From: an uncultured Muribaculaceae bacterium
GTDB lineage: Bacteria > Cyanobacteriota > Vampirovibrionia > Gastranaerophilales > Gastranaerophilaceae
Direction: 5' to 3'
Assembly (NCBI GenBank): GCA_964617065.1
Contig: CAZTVM010000004.1
Coordinates: forward strand, 1 to 40,189
Length of the DNA: 40,189 bases
The notes under the pieces were generated by a model. It was not told where the DNA came from. It saw only the letters and a program-made list of their open reading frames with translations, and searched no databases. The position numbers and the translations under genes are program-made. Below, in pieces: positions 124-30,546 of the stretch (position 1 is the stretch's first letter; every line of letters starts with the position of its first letter).

Positions 124-870
124 ATGATAGATACTATGAACACACTGAACATCAAATATTATGAACAATTAAGTTCTACGAATGAGTATGCAATGTCAAA
201 TATTGCAGAAATTGCCAATAAAACGATTATTGTGGCTGCGAAGCAAATTAGTGGTTACGGTCGTTTTAAAAGAAAATGGCTTTCTGCTAATGAAGATAAT
301 TTATACGCTTCTATTGTTTTAAAGCCTGATTTTGCGCATGCTCCTAATTCTTTTTTGGCGAATTTTACACAATATTTTTCGGTTATACTTTGTGAAACAT
401 TTGAAAAGTACGATGTCAATGCTGAAATAAAATGGCCCAATGATGTCTTGATTAAAGGCAAGAAAATTGCTGGGATTTTGAGTGAAACGTCTTTTCAAGG
501 GCAAAATTTTAAAGGTTTAGTTTTAGGTTTTGGAATTAACTTGAACATGACTCAGGCTGAATTAGATTTGATTGACCAGCCTGCAACTGCATTGAATATT
601 GAAAAAAAGCAAAAAATTGATAAACAACAATTTTTAGAAACTTTGCTGACTGATTTTTTCGCAGATTACGAAAAATTTTTACTAGATGGTTTTGCTTTCA
701 TAAAATCAAGGTATGTGCAAAAATGTTCTTTTATCGGCAAAGAAATTTTAGTAAAGAATTTAGATAAGGAACAGTCAGGGTTGGCAATAGCCATTAACAA
801 TGATGGCTCTTTACAAATACAAAATGATAAAAAGGAATATAAAATACTAATGGGAGATATGACATGTTAG
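124..870 (+). CDS. birA: Biotin--protein ligase, short group-I form without N-terminal HTH repressor domain
   Basis: 248-aa ORF with BirA catalytic blocks (SGYGRFKRKWLS; KWPNDVLIKGKKIAGILSE). Its 3' end overlaps the next ORF by 7 nt. It sits directly upstream of a biotin-dependent decarboxylase operon. The start could be ATG 124 or ATG 136. Confidence 0.85.
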   Translation: MIDTMNTLNIKYYEQLSSTNEYAMSNIAEIANKTIIVAAKQISGYGRFKRKWLSANEDNLYASIVLKPDFAHAPNSFLANFTQYFSVILCETFEKYDVNAEIKWPNDVLIKGKKIAGILSETSFQGQNFKGLVLGFGINLNMTQAELDLIDQPATALNIEKKQKIDKQQFLETLLTDFFADYEKFLLDGFAFIKSRYVQKCSFIGKEILVKNLDKEQSGLAIAINNDGSLQIQNDKKEYKILMGDMTC

Positions 871-1085
871 AAGATGGACTTTTCGTTACAATAGTAGGAA
901 TTGGCGTAGTTTTTGGCTTTCTGTTGATACTTGTAATTACTATGAGTATTACTGCAAAAATTATGGTGGTAATTAATAAACTATTCCCGGAAGCTGTGGT
1001 TGTTACTGCTTCAAAAGTTAAAAAGGATACAAGTTTAGATGAAGAAATAGCTGTTGCTATAGCAGCTACAAAAGCTTTGCGTTAA
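864..1085 (+). CDS. oadG: Oxaloacetate decarboxylase gamma subunit (OadG family small membrane anchor)
   Basis: 73-aa ORF with a single N-terminal TM helix (FVTIVGIGVVFGFLLILVITM) typical of OadG. GGAG lies 7 nt upstream of the ATG. Position is immediately before the oadA/oadB homologs. Confidence 0.65.
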   Translation: MLEDGLFVTIVGIGVVFGFLLILVITMSITAKIMVVINKLFPEAVVVTASKVKKDTSLDEEIAVAIAATKALR

Positions 1086-1107
1086 TTAGAAAAAAGGAAA
1101 TAAGAAA

Positions 1108-2901
1108 ATGACAAAAAAACAAATCAGAGTTATGGACACATCATTCAGAGACGGTTTTCAATCTGTTTATGGGGCAAGAGTTTTTTCAAGAGATTTTTTG
1201 CCTGCATTAAAATCAGCCGTAGAAGCAGGTATAAGACATTTTGAAGTTGGCGGTGGCGCTAGATTTCAGTCTCCGTTTTTTTACTGCAATGAAAATGCAT
1301 TCGAGATGATGGATACAATCAGAGCTACTGTCGGCGATGACGTTAATTTACAAACGCTTGCTCGTGGTGTTAATGTTGTTGGACTTGAGTCACAAACAAA
1401 AGATGTAATCAATTTACATGCTAAATTGTTTAAAAAACATGGAATGACGACTATTCGTAATTTCGACGCCCTAAATGATGTAAATAATTTAATATACAGC
1501 GGTCAGTGTATAAGTAATAACGGATTAAATCATGAAGTTACAATAACGATGATGGGATTGCCTTTAGGTTGTGAAGGCGCTCACAATCCGGATTTTTACG
1601 AAATGGTATTGAGAAAAATTTTAGATTCAGGTTTACCGTTTAATTCTTTGGCTTTTAAAGACGCTTCAGGTACTTCTACTCCTGCTACTGTCTATGAAAC
1701 AGTGAAAAGAGCTCGTGCGTTACTGCCTGAAACTCATATTAGATTTCACTCACATGAAACTGCCGGCACTGGTTTGGCAATGTATTTAGCTGCACTCGAT
1801 GGTGGTGCTGATGGACTTGACCTTGCGATGAAACCTGTTTCAGGTGGTACGAGTCAGCCTGACATTATCTCCATGTGGCATGCGCTAAGAGGTTCTGAAT
1901 ATGATTTAGGTATTGATATAGACAAAATCGTAGAAACTGAAGCTGTTTTCAAAAATTGCATGAAAGATTACTTTATGCCTCCTGAAGCCGCTGCTGTTGA
2001 CCCGATGATTGTATTTTCTCCAATGCCGGGAGGCGCTTTGACCGCTAATACACAAATGATGAGAGATAATGACATTTTGGAAAAATATCCAGCAGTTATT
2101 GAGGCAATGAATGAAGTCGTTAAAAAAGGCGGGTTTGGTACTTCGGTTACGCCTGTGTCTCAATTCTATTTTCAACAAGCTTTCAATAATGTAATGTTCG
2201 GAGATTGGCAAAAAATTGCTGACGGTTACGGAAAAATGGTCTTGGGCTATTTTGGTAAAACACCTTGTGAACCAGATGCTGAGATTATTAAAATTTCTGC
2301 AGAACAATTAGGTTTGGAGCCTACTAATGAAACTGTTTTGGATTTGAATGAAAAAGATGAAAATAAAGGTATTGACGTTGCTCGCAAATTGTTGAAAGAC
2401 GCAAATTTAGAAGAAACAGAAGAAAATTTATTCATTGCAGCTGCTTGTAAAGAAAAAGGTATTACTTTCTTGAAAGGTGAAGCCACGACAAATGTTCGCA
2501 AAAACATCTCAAATCCAGACACTGCATGTTCTGATAGCGAAAAATCTGACAGTTACACAGTTAAAGTAAACGACAAAGTTTATTGTGTAAAATTCGATGG
2601 CGGAAAAGCTGTTGTAAATAACAAAACTTACGATGTTTCGATGACAGCGGGAATAGCTGAAAAAACAGCAACTGAGTCTTCAAGTGATGCTACAGAAGTC
2701 AAAGCGCCATTGCCGGGAGCTGTGATGAAAGTGTTGGTTAATCAAAATGACACAGTATCAGAGGGCGACACGCTTATTGTTGTCGAAGCTATGAAAATGG
2801 AAACAGAAATTAAGGCACCTACAAATGGTTGTGTCTCAGCTGTTATGGTTTCTACTGGAGATCATATCACTTCTGGGCAAACTTTAGTAAGTATTAATTA
2901 A
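1108..2901 (+). CDS. oadA: Oxaloacetate decarboxylase alpha subunit (carboxyltransferase domain plus C-terminal biotinyl domain)
   Basis: The N-terminus [13 protein letters not shown] is the HMGL-like/5S carboxyltransferase signature. The C-terminal biotinyl domain carries [11 protein letters not shown], with the biotinyl-Lys codon at about 2794-2796. AAGGAAA SD upstream. Confidence 0.9.
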
Positions 2902-15194: not shown

Positions 15195-15283
15195 AATTTC
15201 CCTCTAGCTTAATCCTTTGTTAATATTATTTTAGTACAAAAAATATTTTTTACGTAATCTGTCTTTAAATTATTAAAAATAAT

Positions 15284-15292
15284 TGCTATAAT
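15284..15292 (+). promoter_or_regulatory. Extended -10 promoter element TGcTATAAT placed 6 nt before the kinase ATG
   Basis: TGC at 15284-15286, TATAAT at 15287-15292, ATG at 15299. No purine-rich SD lies in the 6 intervening nt (TCTTTT). Confidence 0.5.
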
Positions 15293-15298
15293 TCTTTT

Positions 15299-16030
15299 AT
15301 GCAAGATATTGAACAGACATATTTAGATTTTATTTCGACGGTGAGTCATGAGTTGCGCACCCCACTTACTAGTATAAGGGGTTTTGCTGACACGCTTTTG
15401 ACTTCTCGTGAGCAACTTTCTGATGAGCAAAAAGAAAAATTTTTACATATCATCAAAGACCAATCTAATAGGCTAATTAAGCTTGTAGAAAATCTTTTGG
15501 CTATTTCTAAAATGCAATCGAGTAATTCTCTTTTGATTTTCAAAATACTTGACGTAAAATCTGTAATTGAGCAAACTGTTCAAATTGTCAAAAATCAATA
15601 CAAAAATCATAATTATGAAATAAATATAGATAAAAACGCACCGCAAATTTATGTTGATGTTGATAAATTTCAACAAATCATGGTCAACTTAGTCGAAAAT
15701 GCTGCGAAATATTCTAATCCTAAAACAATAGTAAAAATTGCAGCTAAAAGTAAAAATGAAAATCTTTCTATAACGGTTACTGACGAAGGTATCGGTGTTG
15801 AAGCTGAAAATATGACCAAAATATTTGATAAATTTTCCAGAATTGATAATCCCTTGACCAGAAAAACTCAAGGAAGCGGACTCGGACTTTTTATTACTAA
15901 ACAATTGGTTGAACAAATGAATGGGTCTATTAGTGTGAAAAATAACGAGGTCGGTTGTACTTTTGAATTACTGTTTCCTATATTTACTCCTGAATTACAC
16001 GCAAAAGCAAAATTGAAAGAGTTGCTATAA
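15299..16030 (+). CDS. Sensor-less histidine kinase (DHp plus HATPase_c core only)
   Basis: H-box FISTVSHELRTPLTSIRGF begins at residue about 11. N-box VNLVENAAKYS, G1 DEGIGV, G2 GSGLGLFI. No TM, PAS, HAMP or GAF region precedes the H-box. Confidence 0.85.
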   Translation: MQDIEQTYLDFISTVSHELRTPLTSIRGFADTLLTSREQLSDEQKEKFLHIIKDQSNRLIKLVENLLAISKMQSSNSLLIFKILDVKSVIEQTVQIVKNQYKNHNYEINIDKNAPQIYVDVDKFQQIMVNLVENAAKYSNPKTIVKIAAKSKNENLSITVTDEGIGVEAENMTKIFDKFSRIDNPLTRKTQGSGLGLFITKQLVEQMNGSISVKNNEVGCTFELLFPIFTPELHAKAKLKELL

Positions 16031-17346
16031 TGCTAAAGCAAGTTATTTTGATTATAGATAAAAGAGTAGAGCTTTCTACAAAATACAAAAAAATACTCGA
16101 ACAAATGGGGTTTACGGTTTTTTGTGAAAGTACTATTGCTGCTTCACTCGATATATTGACAAAGTATGAGCCTGATTTAATACTAATTTCTGATAGTCTT
16201 GAAAAAAATATAGCGGACACGTGCAAAAAAATCAGAATTTTAAGTTACACGTTTAGACCGGTGATGATAGCACTTTCAAAGTCGACTCACATGCCTGATA
16301 AACTCGATACTTTGAACTCAGGAGCAGATGATTTTTTGAGTGAGCCAATTGATACAGACGAGTTCAAGGCTCGTATAAATGCTCACATTCGTAGACACAC
16401 GGAAAATAATGTTAATCCGGTTACTCAACTTTATGATGCGAAAATCTCTTTTCAGTATTTGAGACGATTGTTGCTGACTCCACATGAAAATTTTTATGCA
16501 ATGCTCGTGGATATAGATAACTATGAATTTTATAGAGAGATATACGGAGAAATTGCCGCAGATAAAATGTTACAGACTTATCAGGCGATAATAACTTCTG
16601 TGCTAGAGAAAGATGACTATCTCGGTCATGTCGGAACGAATGATTTTTTAATAGTAACGAAATCTGACAAAGTTGAAAAATTAGCCTCATATTTTACGTA
16701 CGCTTTTGATATGATTGCAGAAAAATTCTATTCAAACGAAGATATTTCGCACAAATATATGTTGTTACAAAATGATGAAAAAGATGGGAAACCTATTTCG
16801 CTTGTATCTACCAGTATAGGTATTGTCAGTAATAGGTACAAAAATTTTACGACAGTAAAGCATCTTATGAGTTCGCTTATTTCTGTATTGCAGTTGGCTA
16901 AAACAGACGCAAAATCTAAATATATTTACGAACGCCCGAAAATAGCCTCAAATGACATTATTGAACAAGAAGATTATAATAAAAATATTTTAATTATAGA
17001 GCCCGACGGAGCGTTGGCTTTTTTGTTGTATACAGCAGCTTCTATTCAAGGATATAATCCCAAAATTCTTGAAAATTTTGACGATTTATTTGAGGCAATA
17101 GAAAATTTTACTCCTGCAGTCGTTATTATTGACGCAGGTAGTGACAACAATTTTGTGGGGCTTAATTTTTGCAAAAAAATAAAAGCTGACACCTCTTTCA
17201 GTAAAATTAAAATTATAGTTACAGCAATAGTTCACGACAAAATCAGCGTACTCGATGCCGGTGCTGATGTTTATTTGCCGAAACCTTATGAGTTGACAAC
17301 GATTTTTACGTGGATAAAAAAACTCGTTTCTGATTACAACAATTAA
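16030..17346 (+). CDS. Response-regulator-like protein: degenerate REC - degenerate GGDEF-like domain - canonical REC
   Basis: The ATG overlaps the kinase stop (TAATG). The N-terminal REC has DK instead of DD, and E (codon 16342-16344) where the conserved Lys sits (GADDFLSEP). The middle domain aligns to GGDEF but has GTNDF (16633-16647) in place of GG[DE]EF. The C-terminal REC keeps D (VVIID), T (IIVTA) and K (YLPKP). Confidence 0.75.
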   Translation: MLKQVILIIDKRVELSTKYKKILEQMGFTVFCESTIAASLDILTKYEPDLILISDSLEKNIADTCKKIRILSYTFRPVMIALSKSTHMPDKLDTLNSGADDFLSEPIDTDEFKARINAHIRRHTENNVNPVTQLYDAKISFQYLRRLLLTPHENFYAMLVDIDNYEFYREIYGEIAADKMLQTYQAIITSVLEKDDYLGHVGTNDFLIVTKSDKVEKLASYFTYAFDMIAEKFYSNEDISHKYMLLQNDEKDGKPISLVSTSIGIVSNRYKNFTTVKHLMSSLISVLQLAKTDAKSKYIYERPKIASNDIIEQEDYNKNILIIEPDGALAFLLYTAASIQGYNPKILENFDDLFEAIENFTPAVVIIDAGSDNNFVGLNFCKKIKADTSFSKIKIIVTAIVHDKISVLDAGADVYLPKPYELTTIFTWIKKLVSDYNN

Positions 17347-17349
17347 CGC

Positions 17350-19455
17350 TTATTGGTAAATATTGACATAATTCCAATAGGCTTTATAAACTTTTTTCAC
17401 GTAATTTTTTGTTTCATTATATGGTATATCTTCGACAAATTCATCAAAATCAGTGTAGTCTTTATTGTTAAACCAATAATTAACTGCGTTAGGTCCACCG
17501 TTATAAGCAGCAACAGCGAGTTGGTCGCTATTTCTTAATTCGTTTTTTATAAACGCAAAATAGCTACAACCTAACAATATATTCAATTGTGGGTCAAAAA
17601 GTTCTTCTGGTGAAAGATAAGGTATATTTGTTTTTTGAGCAATAAATAATGCGGTATCAGGCATGAGTTGCATCAGTCCTCTCGCATTAGAAGTGCTGAC
17701 TACACTTGAATTAAAATGACTTTCTTCCTTCAGCAATGAAAGCATCAAATAAACATTCAAATTTAATTTAGTGCATGTTTCGTTTAAAATATCGGTATAG
17801 TGCAAGGGGTAAGCAAGTTTATAAGGCATTTTATTGAAATCAGGCTTCGGAAAAGTATCTTTCAACCAATCTCTTGCATATACAGATGACGTAGAATATT
17901 TCCCATTTTTGTCCATAATCCAACTTTGCACAAGTTTGTTTTGTATCCCAATATCGTCTAAAATAGTTAAGTCGTTTGCGTTTATAGCTAAAGTAACCAT
18001 TTTTGTGCTTTTTTCATCCCAATTTGTATATTCAAAAGGGAATTGGTAGACTTGTAATTTCTCTGTCAACTTTTTAGATATTTTATCATGATTAAAATTC
18101 GGATTTATATTTTTTAAATTGTACATAGCTGCTGCTCTAAAGGCGTAGTAGTCATCAGGATATTCTTTCATCAATTTTTGGTAATAAAATTTTGCCTTTT
18201 CAAATTGTCGTTGCTCATGATAAATTTTTGCGACCCAAAACAATATAGCAGGTGCTGAATTTGCTTGAGGATACAAACTTATATGCTTTTCTCCCAAGCT
18301 CAAAGCAGTTTTAAAAGATTTATTTTTATAGTAAAACCTAAACAATTCCCACAAAGCCTCTGGTGCGTAGTCGCTTCTTTGATATTGCTGTGTCAGCGAA
18401 GTAAAATAACTGGCTCGTTCACGCTCATTTGTAGATAACAAACCCAAATTGTACAGTATAAAGTCTTCTGATTGAGCTTGATTTTTGCGACAAATTTGCC
18501 ACAATTCTATCCAAGCTTCTTTTTTGCTTAAGTTCGAACTGTTGACTACATCTGTCAAAACTGTGTTCAATTTATTTTTGTCTATAGTTCTCGAAAATTT
18601 AGGATAGTAGTAATTAAATACAGCTTTTGCTTTTTCAGCATGCAAAAGTTTTTTTTCTGTAAAATATTTTGCGTCCCAATACTGTCGATAATTGCCTCTT
18701 TCGAAATATGCCGCCGCTTTTTCATAATTACCGTTAGCATAATATGCGTTCGCTAACTTTACATTAATTATCGGTGATAGTTGCTTATTAAATGTTATTA
18801 TTTCATTGATACAGTCTTGTGAGTAAGTGCACTGAGGACAATTATCTAAATAAGCAAGCCATAAGTTTGTAGCTTCGACAATTAAATTTTGGTTGTAATT
18901 GTCTGCCATTGTCAACTCTGCAGCAAAAGGATCCTGCTCTGTTTGATAAACTAATTCTTTCTTATCTTTTTTTGCGCTTTCTTTTATCATTTCAGCCAAA
19001 AAATAATTTGCAGCCACCGCATAATCACTTTGCGTATAATTGAGCCGTATTTGATTGAAAAGGTATTCACTCTTTTTGTATTCTTTGTCACTGAAATAAG
19101 CTTTCGCTAATTCGTACGTAGCTTTTTCCGTGAAAATAGTATTTTTGTAATTCTTTATAAAAATAGAATATTTTTCTATGCTTGATTTTGTATCTTTTAG
19201 TTGCTCAGCGCAATAACCTTGTCTGTACAACGCTATTGGATAATATGGCGAATTTGGTCGTATTTTTGAAAAATTGTAGTATGCGTTTTGGTAATCCTTT
19301 TGATTTAAAAAATTTACACCTTGCGTATAATAAGTAACTGCAGTCGATGAAGGTATGAAAAAATAAAAAAAACATTTTGTCGCAATTAAAAACAAGCCTA
19401 TCGAAATCAGGATTAATAATGCGTTTTTTATATTCTCAAGTTTCAAATCTATCAT
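17350..19455 (-). CDS. Soluble lytic murein transglycosylase (Slt70-like: N-terminal anchor, TPR/superhelical domain, C-terminal SLT domain)
   Basis: 701 aa. The C-terminal SLT catalytic block LLKEESHFNSSVVSTSNARGLMQLMPDTA ... AAYNGGPNAV. TPR-like repeats upstream. N-terminal TM/signal anchor. Confidence 0.85.
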   Translation of the reverse strand: MIDLKLENIKNALLILISIGLFLIATKCFFYFFIPSSTAVTYYTQGVNFLNQKDYQNAYYNFSKIRPNSPYYPIALYRQGYCAEQLKDTKSSIEKYSIFIKNYKNTIFTEKATYELAKAYFSDKEYKKSEYLFNQIRLNYTQSDYAVAANYFLAEMIKESAKKDKKELVYQTEQDPFAAELTMADNYNQNLIVEATNLWLAYLDNCPQCTYSQDCINEIITFNKQLSPIINVKLANAYYANGNYEKAAAYFERGNYRQYWDAKYFTEKKLLHAEKAKAVFNYYYPKFSRTIDKNKLNTVLTDVVNSSNLSKKEAWIELWQICRKNQAQSEDFILYNLGLLSTNERERASYFTSLTQQYQRSDYAPEALWELFRFYYKNKSFKTALSLGEKHISLYPQANSAPAILFWVAKIYHEQRQFEKAKFYYQKLMKEYPDDYYAFRAAAMYNLKNINPNFNHDKISKKLTEKLQVYQFPFEYTNWDEKSTKMVTLAINANDLTILDDIGIQNKLVQSWIMDKNGKYSTSSVYARDWLKDTFPKPDFNKMPYKLAYPLHYTDILNETCTKLNLNVYLMLSLLKEESHFNSSVVSTSNARGLMQLMPDTALFIAQKTNIPYLSPEELFDPQLNILLGCSYFAFIKNELRNSDQLAVAAYNGGPNAVNYWFNNKDYTDFDEFVEDIPYNETKNYVKKVYKAYWNYVNIYQ

Positions 19456-28692: not shown

Positions 28693-30546
28693 TTAATTTG
28701 CACTCACGTCATCAGCTAAGCCGACTTGATTTCTTCCGTTTTCTTTCGCTTTATATAAACCTTTATCAGCATATCCGATAATATCGGTCGAACTTACTCC
28801 GTTTTCAGGATATGTAGAAACTCCGAGACTGATAGTCACTGTTTGTATATTATTTTGACCTAACTTAAAAGGAGTATTAGCAACAATATTACAAATTTTT
28901 TGTGCAGTTAAAACGGCTTCTTGCTTAGCCGTATTAGGCAGTATTATAGTCATTTCTTCTCCGCCGTAGCGACAAACAATGTCACTTACCCTGACTGTTT
29001 TTTTTAAAATTTGTGAAACTTGTTTAAGTACGTTATCTCCGGCTTGATGACCATATTTATCATTGAATTTTTTGAAAAAGTCTATGTCTATTAGAAGTAA
29101 CGAAAAGCTTGTGCCATACCTTTTGCTGTTTTCTATATTAATAATTAATTGCTCCTGAAAATATCTGTGGTTATAAAGTTCAGTCAATCCATCAGTCGTC
29201 GCCAATTTATATGTATACTCTAAATCTCTTGATTTTAAAAGATACTTTACGACGTAAACAGCTGTGAAAGTCAGCAATAATGAAATTACAGGAAGGATAA
29301 TAGGAATCCATATATCGTAAACTTTCATAATCCAACCGGAAAATAAAATATAACCAACTGTTAAAAGAATTGTTACTAAAAAACATATAGTAGGGCGCTT
29401 TATACGGAAAAGGAAAAATATTAACAGCACTGATAAAGTGAATGTTATTAAAAAGTCAGCCAGTGGATTTAATCGGACAATAAAACTATTATCGAGTGCG
29501 TTATTTACAAAGGTAGTATGCAGATTTACTGCCGGCATGACCGATGTTATCGGCGAAGACTTTATATCATATAGCGCAACAGCCGATGTTCCCACATAAA
29601 TTATTTTGTCTTTAAAGTAATTTTTTGGAATTTTGTTTAGCGTCTTTTCACCCTTCATTGATTTGTAAACATCTAAAAAAGATACCTGCGCAAAACTATT
29701 ATTTCTATCGTACCAGTGCAAAATGCTCGTTGCATTTTTTTGTAACGGAATTTTGTATTCTCCTATTTCAAGTTGGTTATTAGAGTTAATAATTAATTCA
29801 TCAATTTTCTTTTTTGTTTTTTGTTCCTCAAGTTGCATTAAGAGTTTTGTCGACAAATTTGGGTAATATTCATTTTTATACACAAAAAATGGTGAAAACT
29901 CACGATAAATACCGTCAATAGAGGGTGTTGCATTTATCAAACCTATGTTTTTAGTAGAATTCAGTATTTCAGGTAATATTTTTCTGCAATTTGGGAAATT
30001 AATATTAATATTTTTTTGGGGTTCTATTTTTGAATAATTTTTTATATTTACTTTAAGTCCGCTAGGCAAATCAATAGGAAGTCTGGTTTCTGCTGTTTCA
30101 AAGTCAAAATTCATTGATGTAAAAACATTTTCATATTTTGCTATTGTTTTTGATAAATATTTATCACTTTCTAAAGAACTTTTTATAGAACTTATAAACA
30201 ATAAGTCGAGACAAATCGCTTTAGGAGAGTCCCTTTCAATATAGTTTATAATGTCGGCATAAACATCACGAGGTATTGGCCATTCTCCGAAACGCTCAGT
30301 CAAGGCACTATAAGTTCTTTCATCGATAGCCAGAATTACGACATCATCACTCGTCTCACGACTGCTTGCGTTTATTCTTTGCCGAGCGTCAAAAGTCTTT
30401 AACTCCACAGTCTCCAAAAAATTAATCACATTCGTAAATATATTTGCTACAGTACTTTGATTGATTACCAAAGCCAAGCTGCACACTAATAAAATAAATA
30501 CCGACGCAGCTATGACCAAAGTTTGCTTATATGTTTTTTTGCCCAT
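28693..30546 (-). CDS. CHASE2 sensor-domain diguanylate cyclase (GGDEF)
   Basis: N-terminal TM, then a CHASE2-like periplasmic block (VVILAIDERTY...GEWPIPRDVYA...AICLDLLF), three TM helices and a GGDEF domain. The active-site motif reads GGEEM. An RxxD I-site (RVSD) lies 5 residues upstream. Confidence 0.85.
   Translation of the reverse strand: MGKKTYKQTLVIAASVFILLVCSLALVINQSTVANIFTNVINFLETVELKTFDARQRINASSRETSDDVVILAIDERTYSALTERFGEWPIPRDVYADIINYIERDSPKAICLDLLFISSIKSSLESDKYLSKTIAKYENVFTSMNFDFETAETRLPIDLPSGLKVNIKNYSKIEPQKNININFPNCRKILPEILNSTKNIGLINATPSIDGIYREFSPFFVYKNEYYPNLSTKLLMQLEEQKTKKKIDELIINSNNQLEIGEYKIPLQKNATSILHWYDRNNSFAQVSFLDVYKSMKGEKTLNKIPKNYFKDKIIYVGTSAVALYDIKSSPITSVMPAVNLHTTFVNNALDNSFIVRLNPLADFLITFTLSVLLIFFLFRIKRPTICFLVTILLTVGYILFSGWIMKVYDIWIPIILPVISLLLTFTAVYVVKYLLKSRDLEYTYKLATTDGLTELYNHRYFQEQLIINIENSKRYGTSFSLLLIDIDFFKKFNDKYGHQAGDNVLKQVSQILKKTVRVSDIVCRYGGEEMTIILPNTAKQEAVLTAQKICNIVANTPFKLGQNNIQTVTISLGVSTYPENGVSSTDIIGYADKGLYKAKENGRNQVGLADDVSAN

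Follow-up and report, generated by a model that had tools for sequence, protein, structure and literature searches.

A class-wide two-component pair of Vampirovibrionia joins a short histidine kinase to a regulator with a degenerate GGDEF domain

The kinase and regulator genes

We analyzed a DNA stretch of 40,189 nucleotides (nt), the whole of which is called the window here, from an uncultured Muribaculaceae bacterium that is classified in GTDB as Bacteria; Cyanobacteriota; Vampirovibrionia; Gastranaerophilales; Gastranaerophilaceae. The window is the forward strand of contig CAZTVM010000004.1 (positions 1 to 40,189) in GenBank assembly GCA_964617065.1, a Gastranaerophilales gut metagenome-assembled genome of 1.84 Mb in 137 contigs with 91% completeness. 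We found in it a histidine kinase gene for 243 amino acids (15299..16030, + strand) and a regulator gene for 438 amino acids (16030..17346, + strand) that form a dedicated two-component pair, ancient in the class Vampirovibrionia (Melainabacteria). Pfam and AlphaFold2 (AF2) models assign HisKA and HATPase_c domains to the kinase and a pseudo-receiver (pseudo-REC), a degenerate GGDEF domain and a receiver (REC) to the regulator. A preliminary description of this DNA, made from the letters alone, had placed both open reading frames (ORFs) at these positions and noted a TAATG overlap between them. Both observations hold: the last base of the kinase TAA codon (16028-16030) is the first base of the regulator ATG (16030-16032), giving an overlap of 1 nt.

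The kinase contains two Pfam domains and no further match. HisKA, the dimerization and histidine phosphotransfer (DHp) domain, covers residues 10-74 (15326..15520, + strand; 72 bits against a cut-off of 26.9), and the HATPase_c catalytic domain covers residues 120-227 (15656..15979, + strand; 89.6 bits), its N, G1, F and G2 boxes all being intact. The predicted phospho-accepting His17 (codon 15347-15349) lies in the motif SHELRTP, within which the E-x-x-T phosphatase motif is also found. Among 60 kinase orthologues, H17, E18 and T21 are invariant, as are N130/N134, D162/G164/G166, F176/F179 and G192/G194/G196 of the ATPase domain. The AF2 model, with a mean predicted local distance difference test (pLDDT) score of 81, begins with a helix of residues 2-35 (DHp α1), continues with a second DHp helix (42-73) and ends with the ATPase domain, whose ATP lid (180-193) has a low pLDDT and is disordered. 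The lack of any input region (transmembrane, PAS or HAMP) that had been claimed for this kinase is thus confirmed by the Pfam assignment and by a helix that starts at residue 2. Judged by its motifs, the protein is a catalytically intact, PhoR/WalK-like HisKA (class I) kinase, and it looks like a competent kinase/phosphatase core without an input domain. Its best NCBIfam matches fall far below the equivalog cut-offs (PnpS, 216 against 400 bits; WalK, 188 against 725; PhoR, 181 against 334).

Domains of the regulator

Pfam maps REC to residues 6-116 of the regulator, GGDEF to residues 129-233, and a second REC thereafter. The AF2 model (mean pLDDT 86.4; predicted template modelling score, pTM, 0.68) has three folded domains and a disordered linker at residues 305-313. 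The three-domain order REC-GGDEF-REC, as first described, is therefore seen by both methods. In Foldseek, the first two domains superpose on WspR, DgcR and PleD with a probability of 1.00, and the top matches are 3bre and 6zxm/6zxb. We collected 182 distinct Gastranaerophilales orthologues of the regulator, on which the following residue and motif counts are based.

The first receiver (REC1; residues 4-125; 16039..16404, + strand) was aligned to YycF and KdpE. Ser54 occupies the phospho-Asp position, Asp55 stands one residue further on, and Glu105 occupies the position of the conserved Lys; the acidic-pair position reads D10-K11. Ser54-Asp55 and Glu105 are present in all 182 orthologues and the DK pair in 175 of them. 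The α4-β5-α5 face (GADDFLSEP...AHIRRH) is conserved. By these residues, REC1 is a pseudo-receiver that has neither the acceptor Asp nor the Lys. The DK pair and the Glu at the Lys position had already been reported as lost canonical residues, and the phospho-Asp register, then considered ambiguous, reads Ser54 in our alignment. Since these residue features of the regulator are fixed in 182 distinct orthologues, they are not due to chance.

The middle domain has a GGDEF fold by Pfam and Foldseek (residues ~129-300; 16414..16929, + strand), and its Pfam match reaches 45.2 bits (cut-off, 23.8) but is partial, spanning model positions 4-114 of 161. Its FYSxxDxxxxY hallmark is conserved. The signature, however degenerate the domain, can be located at G202-T-N-D-F206 (GTNDF; 16633-16647), and the position of the RxxD I-site, five residues ahead of it, reads E193-K-D-D196. 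The signature takes 81 forms in the 182 orthologues, none of which fits [GAS]G[DE]E[FY] or GG[DE][DE]F. At the first RxxD position, Gastranaerophilales have D, E, N or G and other families frequently have P; no lineage has an RxxD. In a motif alignment to PleD, R169 presumably corresponds to the guanine-binding Asn, N335, of PleD; this position is K or R in 177 of the 182 orthologues. The position that we take to be the phosphate-binding Arg, R446 of PleD, is Ser, with GS or similar in place of GRN. By the same alignment, the substrate-site positions D161/D163, D178 (presumably D344 of PleD) and K288 (presumably K442) survive. Mean column conservation is 0.72 for the middle domain versus 0.74 and 0.71 for the two receivers. 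A hypervariable signature within a domain that matches the receivers in overall conservation fits a retained function and a drifting former active site, and 81 different motifs point to relaxed selection on the cyclase site. The preliminary description considered this domain probably not a cyclase. With no active motif in 182 orthologues, 81 variants, K or R at the presumed N335 position and no RxxD, cyclase activity appears very unlikely.

The second receiver (REC2; residues 318-432; 16981..17325, + strand) is a likely phospho-acceptor. Alignments to ArlR and MtrA place D368 (codon 17131-17133), T398 and K418 at the acceptor, Thr/Ser and Lys positions, respectively. D368 and K418 are invariant in the 182 orthologues, and position 398 is always T or S. 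REC2 is the only plausible phospho-acceptor that we can recognize in the regulator.

Distribution and conservation of the pair

We then investigated the occurrence of the regulator. Matches at E≤1e-10 are found in 138 of 151 Vampirovibrionia genomes; they are mostly full-length and some are partial. One Vampirovibrionia family has no match in its nine genomes, and a few families have weaker or partial matches. In a sample of 201 Cyanobacteriota genomes, those outside Vampirovibrionia, including the photosynthetic cyanobacteria, yielded just three matches at E≤1e-15, all to the GGDEF domain only, and no full-length regulator. When 1.84 billion cluster representatives were searched with a profile of the family, 277 proteins were returned at E≤1e-30, including about 45 full-length members, and the matches under about 190 bits become ordinary REC-GGDEF proteins.

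Gene neighbourhoods were compared for 80 Gastranaerophilales loci (L032-L111) from species-representative genomes and for 20 loci from other Vampirovibrionia families of GTDB (families are denoted by the handles f1-f11). In 76 of the 80 Gastranaerophilales loci, the kinase gene immediately precedes the regulator gene on the same strand, the remaining four being cut by contig ends. It likewise immediately precedes the regulator gene in 19 of the 20 loci of other families; the other one, L022, has an extra ORF between the two genes. The flanks of the pair differ between families. No third gene is conserved class-wide, and only the kinase and the regulator are kept together across the class. The pair is among the few signalling modules common to most sampled Vampirovibrionia, including small gut genomes of 1.5-2 Mb. 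Almost no members of this lineage are in culture, and the pair probably governs one of its basic functions.

Expression signals and neighbouring genes

A scan for consensus sequences found a promoter-like site directly before the kinase gene (15264..15292, + strand). It consists of TTTAAA, 17 nt and a TG-extended TATAAT (TG-n-TATAAT), and it is a match to the consensus only. The TATAAT ends 6 nt 5' of the kinase ATG, and no Shine-Dalgarno sequence is found between the two (15264..15298). This arrangement suggests that the predicted kinase transcript may be leaderless or near-leaderless. Upstream, the divergent ileS gene is 104 nt away. Downstream, a convergent gene for a TPR/Slt-type lytic transglycosylase ends 3 nt past the regulator stop (17344..17352), and no terminator-like hairpin was found between these two genes.

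Other neighbours occur in relatives. A leucyl aminopeptidase gene (M17, pepA-like) lies downstream on the same strand in 51 of the 80 Gastranaerophilales loci, and a TolC-like gene precedes the pair in 19 of them; neither arrangement is present in the window. A divergent CHASE2 gene adjoins the kinase gene in six of the 80 loci, and no CHASE2 gene lies next to the pair in the class sample. In the window, a canonical CHASE2-GGDEF diguanylate cyclase gene (28693..30546, − strand; GGDEF 169 bits, CHASE2 153 bits) is located 11 kb from the pair; in a few relatives, the equivalent gene adjoins the kinase gene. The genome carries six canonical GGDEF proteins. For a link of the pair to cyclic di-GMP (c-di-GMP), these observations are a hint only. 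A second degenerate GGDEF protein, of 432 amino acids, is encoded on contig C103 of the same genome and has a partial N-terminal receiver and a GGDEF match up to model position ~115. Its gene overlaps the start of a downstream ORF of 345 amino acids that resembles two CheW-like repeats by sequence, and the two together lie at 324..2640 (L007; − strand).

Loss of the PAS domain in the kinase lineage

The shortness of the kinase could have been an artefact. However, truncation or mis-annotation of the kinase gene can be ruled out: its frame stays open for just 10 codons 5' of the ATG (253 versus 243 amino acids) and is closed there, ileS lies at a distance of 104 nt, and the short form prevails among the orthologues, which mostly have 241-256 amino acids. 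The 120 closest homologues have 237-300 amino acids, nearly all of them 243-256. Among the 76 Gastranaerophilales loci with an upstream kinase, about 57 have the His at position 15-37 and hence no input domain.

Longer kinases are found in two forms. About 17 of the 76 loci, including Candidatus Limenecus and Spyradomonas records, encode kinases of 319-336 amino acids with a reduced N-terminal PAS of about 85 residues, a segment whose match exceeds the Pfam PAS cut-off but covers just the first half of the model. In the 20 loci of other Vampirovibrionia families, the upstream kinase has 356-411 amino acids with an N-terminal, cytoplasmic PAS-like region of 115-150 residues, and three of seven tested kinases match PAS models. 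By this comparison of sequences, the PAS domain was reduced and then lost in most Gastranaerophilales kinases, and the short form reflects a lineage-specific loss of this domain that has become fixed. The preliminary description had held that a longer gene in relatives would speak against its account. Such genes exist in the evolutionary sense, as the orthologues of 356-411 amino acids, but the short gene is fixed and under selection and begins at a start codon of its own; it is not a gene fragment. The reduced-PAS kinases are found at L037, L049, L058-L060, L081, L086, L087, L089, L092, L095, L098, L102-L104 and L106; several of these loci also have a divergent CHASE2 gene upstream.

Relatives of the regulator in other phyla

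The domain order of the regulator was originally contrasted with that of PleD, and it does differ. It is not unique, however, since REC-GGDEF-REC proteins with an intact REC1 and a GGDDF motif also occur in other phyla. This REC-GGDDF-REC group, which stands among the weaker full-length matches of the profile search, comes from Gemmatimonadota, Elusimicrobia and Spirochaetota (e.g. RMH73602.1, OGS21029.1 and MCX8059173.1) and scores 150-185 bits against the family profile. It shares with the Vampirovibrionia family the order of the three domains and the hallmarks of one GGDEF subfamily: an LPGN start, FYxxEDLQRGY and a Pfam GGDEF match ending at ~112. Unlike the Vampirovibrionia family, the group keeps a canonical REC1 (DD, D, K), and its signature reads HIGGDDF, a motif that may be active. 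One of these proteins has an HD-GYP tail, and the Elusimicrobia gene is flanked by two HAMP kinases. The group includes the proteins P0306, P0313, P0327, P0334 and P0336 and the loci L112 and L113.

These proteins look like intact relatives of the Vampirovibrionia family and appear undescribed. We found no published description of a REC-GGDEF-REC or GGDEF-REC architecture in the literature searched, and nothing relevant there on Melainabacteria GGDEF proteins or Gastranaerophilales two-component systems. The Vampirovibrionia family, in turn, resembles a derivative that has decayed and retains a single input. Most parsimoniously, a two-input cyclase lost its REC1 input and its cyclase site in Vampirovibrionia, and the PAS of the kinase was then lost in most Gastranaerophilales.

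A clade with Glu at the acceptor position

The acceptor position of REC2 is Glu in all 12 sampled members of families f3, f8, f7 and f4, and a second alignment (MtrA, DrrD and others) also places this Glu on the phospho-Asp. REC1 of these proteins has no consistent Asp either. In a maximum-likelihood tree, the 12 Glu-acceptor members are on one side of a branch with a support of 89/63, which is compatible with a single Asp-to-Glu change. The adjacent PAS-kinases still have the His together with the N, G1 and G2 boxes for ATP binding, and the two genes remain side by side. The members of this clade are encoded at L013-L015, L017, L023-L025 and L027-L029 and include the proteins P0257 and P0261.

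Taken together, the family offers a natural decay series of a two-input cyclase, in which first REC1 and then the cyclase become inactive, and after that either the PAS is lost or the acceptor Asp becomes Glu. This series could show how signalling enzymes turn into adaptors, and whether a kinase stays coupled to a partner that is no longer phosphorylated.

A possible mechanism and its alternatives

The architecture of the pair is confirmed by these results, and the earlier interpretation, in which a phospho-controlled scaffold receives its input through a partner, is partly supported. We hold with moderate confidence that a signal-blind kinase phosphorylates Asp368 of REC2 and so switches how a non-catalytic body, formed by the pseudo-REC and the degenerate GGDEF domain, binds partners or oligomerizes. 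The regulator ORF would be translationally coupled to the kinase. The kinase, having no signal of its own, would autophosphorylate on His17 and pass the phosphoryl group on to Asp368. The body may be constitutively dimeric through the α4-β5-α5 face; phosphorylation of REC2 would alter its oligomeric or partner-binding state, and it would act through protein-protein contact rather than c-di-GMP synthesis. Flux could be controlled by expression, by a partner protein, or by the non-catalytic domains of the regulator acting back on the kinase. The regulator would be a scaffold or adaptor, and the input may be supplied by a partner. To see which receiver contacts the kinase, covariation between the kinase and the three regulator domains was calculated as mutual information with average product correction for 94 pairs; the effective number of sequences is ~57, and the top pairs are clade markers.

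Several observations weigh against phosphotransfer to REC2 as the core of the mechanism. The receiver had been called fully canonical, which is true of D368, T398 and K418 but not of the acidic pair. The latter reads E324-P325-D326, with P325 at the second metal-binding acid, where ArlR has EDE and MtrA has DDD; EPD is found in 160 of the 182 orthologues, and D326, after P325, is invariant. REC2 scores 34 bits against Pfam REC, compared with 85-112 bits for ordinary receivers of the same genome. Without the second acid and with such a score, phosphotransfer is not assured. In addition, no output partner or target was identified from the gene context. Finally, a Glu acceptor beside an intact kinase means that phosphorylation of the regulator is not essential for keeping the pair. 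In the Glu clade, the kinase must phosphorylate another target, or else be kept in a complex with a partner that it is unable to phosphorylate. This shows that conservation concerns the physical association of the two proteins, beyond phosphotransfer alone, and the regulator may bind the kinase as a partner no less than it serves as its substrate. The Asp-to-Glu inference is not directly applicable to the lineage of the window, in which Asp368 is invariant.

These points lead to the alternative that the regulator is mainly a trans-acting input or a pseudo-substrate of the kinase, docking on its DHp domain, and that the real phosphoryl output is another response regulator. The regulator would then replace the lost PAS as the input in Gastranaerophilales. 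Receivers can regulate kinases, as DivK does for DivJ/PleC and FixT for FixL. Besides the divergent REC2 that lacks a second acid and the Glu clade, where kinase boxes and gene adjacency are kept without a consistent acceptor Asp, the genome itself is in favour, because it has about 21 receiver domains versus 11-13 HisKA kinases, and orphan receivers therefore exist. Nevertheless, we regard this alternative as unlikely, since D368, T/S398 and K418 are invariant in the lineage of the window, for which phosphorylation is the simplest explanation, and no alternative substrate was identified. The related version, in which the regulator is a response-regulator-derived input module that binds and controls the kinase with or without receiving phosphate, the true substrate being an unlinked regulator, seems rather unlikely to us. 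Under this version, the regulator of the Glu clade would be wholly unphosphorylatable and would nevertheless stay with an intact kinase.

Alternatively, the degenerate GGDEF domain might sense a nucleotide, such as GTP or c-di-GMP, and the regulator would then be a PopA/PelD-type effector that integrates a nucleotide signal with phosphorylation. The six canonical GGDEF proteins indicate that c-di-GMP signalling exists in the genome, some substrate-site residues survive (D161/D163, D178 and K288), and CHASE2 genes are found beside the kinase in six of 80 relatives and, with GGDEF, 11 kb away in the window. On the other hand, no lineage has an RxxD I-site, the presumed N335 and R446 positions hold K/R and Ser, the phosphate-contacting signature loop is hypervariable, and the CHASE2 genes are not adjacent class-wide. 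A sensor of this kind is, in our view, distinctly unlikely. Remaining activity of the middle domain as a nucleotide cyclase, with an unorthodox motif, is barely credible: although a GGDDF variant is active in Geobacter GSU1937 (PMC8835794) and the outgroup relatives carry GGDDF, the window reads GTNDF and none of the 182 orthologues has GG at positions 1-2 together with acids at positions 3-4.

Comparison with known systems

The kinase shares its H-box type with PhoR, WalK and PnpS, and the PAS directly before the DHp domain in these kinases also occurs in the longer Vampirovibrionia orthologues. It differs from them in having no transmembrane, HAMP or PAS region, no pst/phoU or cell-wall gene context, and scores far below equivalog level.

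The N-terminal two thirds of the regulator have the same fold and order as WspR of Pseudomonas and DgcR of Leptospira, namely REC, an α5 stalk and GGDEF; the conserved α4-β5-α5 face and the LTxLP with which the GGDEF domain begins are common to them as well. Unlike WspR and DgcR, the regulator lacks the phospho-Asp and Lys of REC1, GG[DE]EF and RxxD, and it has an added C-terminal receiver. PleD of Caulobacter and the regulator each combine one phosphorylatable receiver, one pseudo-receiver adaptor and a GGDEF domain, and both have dedicated kinases. However, the order is REC, pseudo-REC and GGDEF in PleD, whereas it is pseudo-REC, GGDEF and REC in the regulator, where the cyclase is dead. With 90.8 bits against the NCBIfam PleD model NF007135 (cut-off 474), the regulator falls outside the PleD family. 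PopA of Caulobacter (REC-REC-degenerate GGDEF) is likewise shaped as a response regulator with a non-catalytic GGDEF domain, and it is a protein adaptor. PopA binds c-di-GMP via an intact RxxD I-site, which the regulator lacks, while PopA has neither a C-terminal receiver nor a dedicated adjacent kinase. Compared with these systems, the pair is a class-wide two-component system of known parts with a degenerate GGDEF protein as its probable adaptor.

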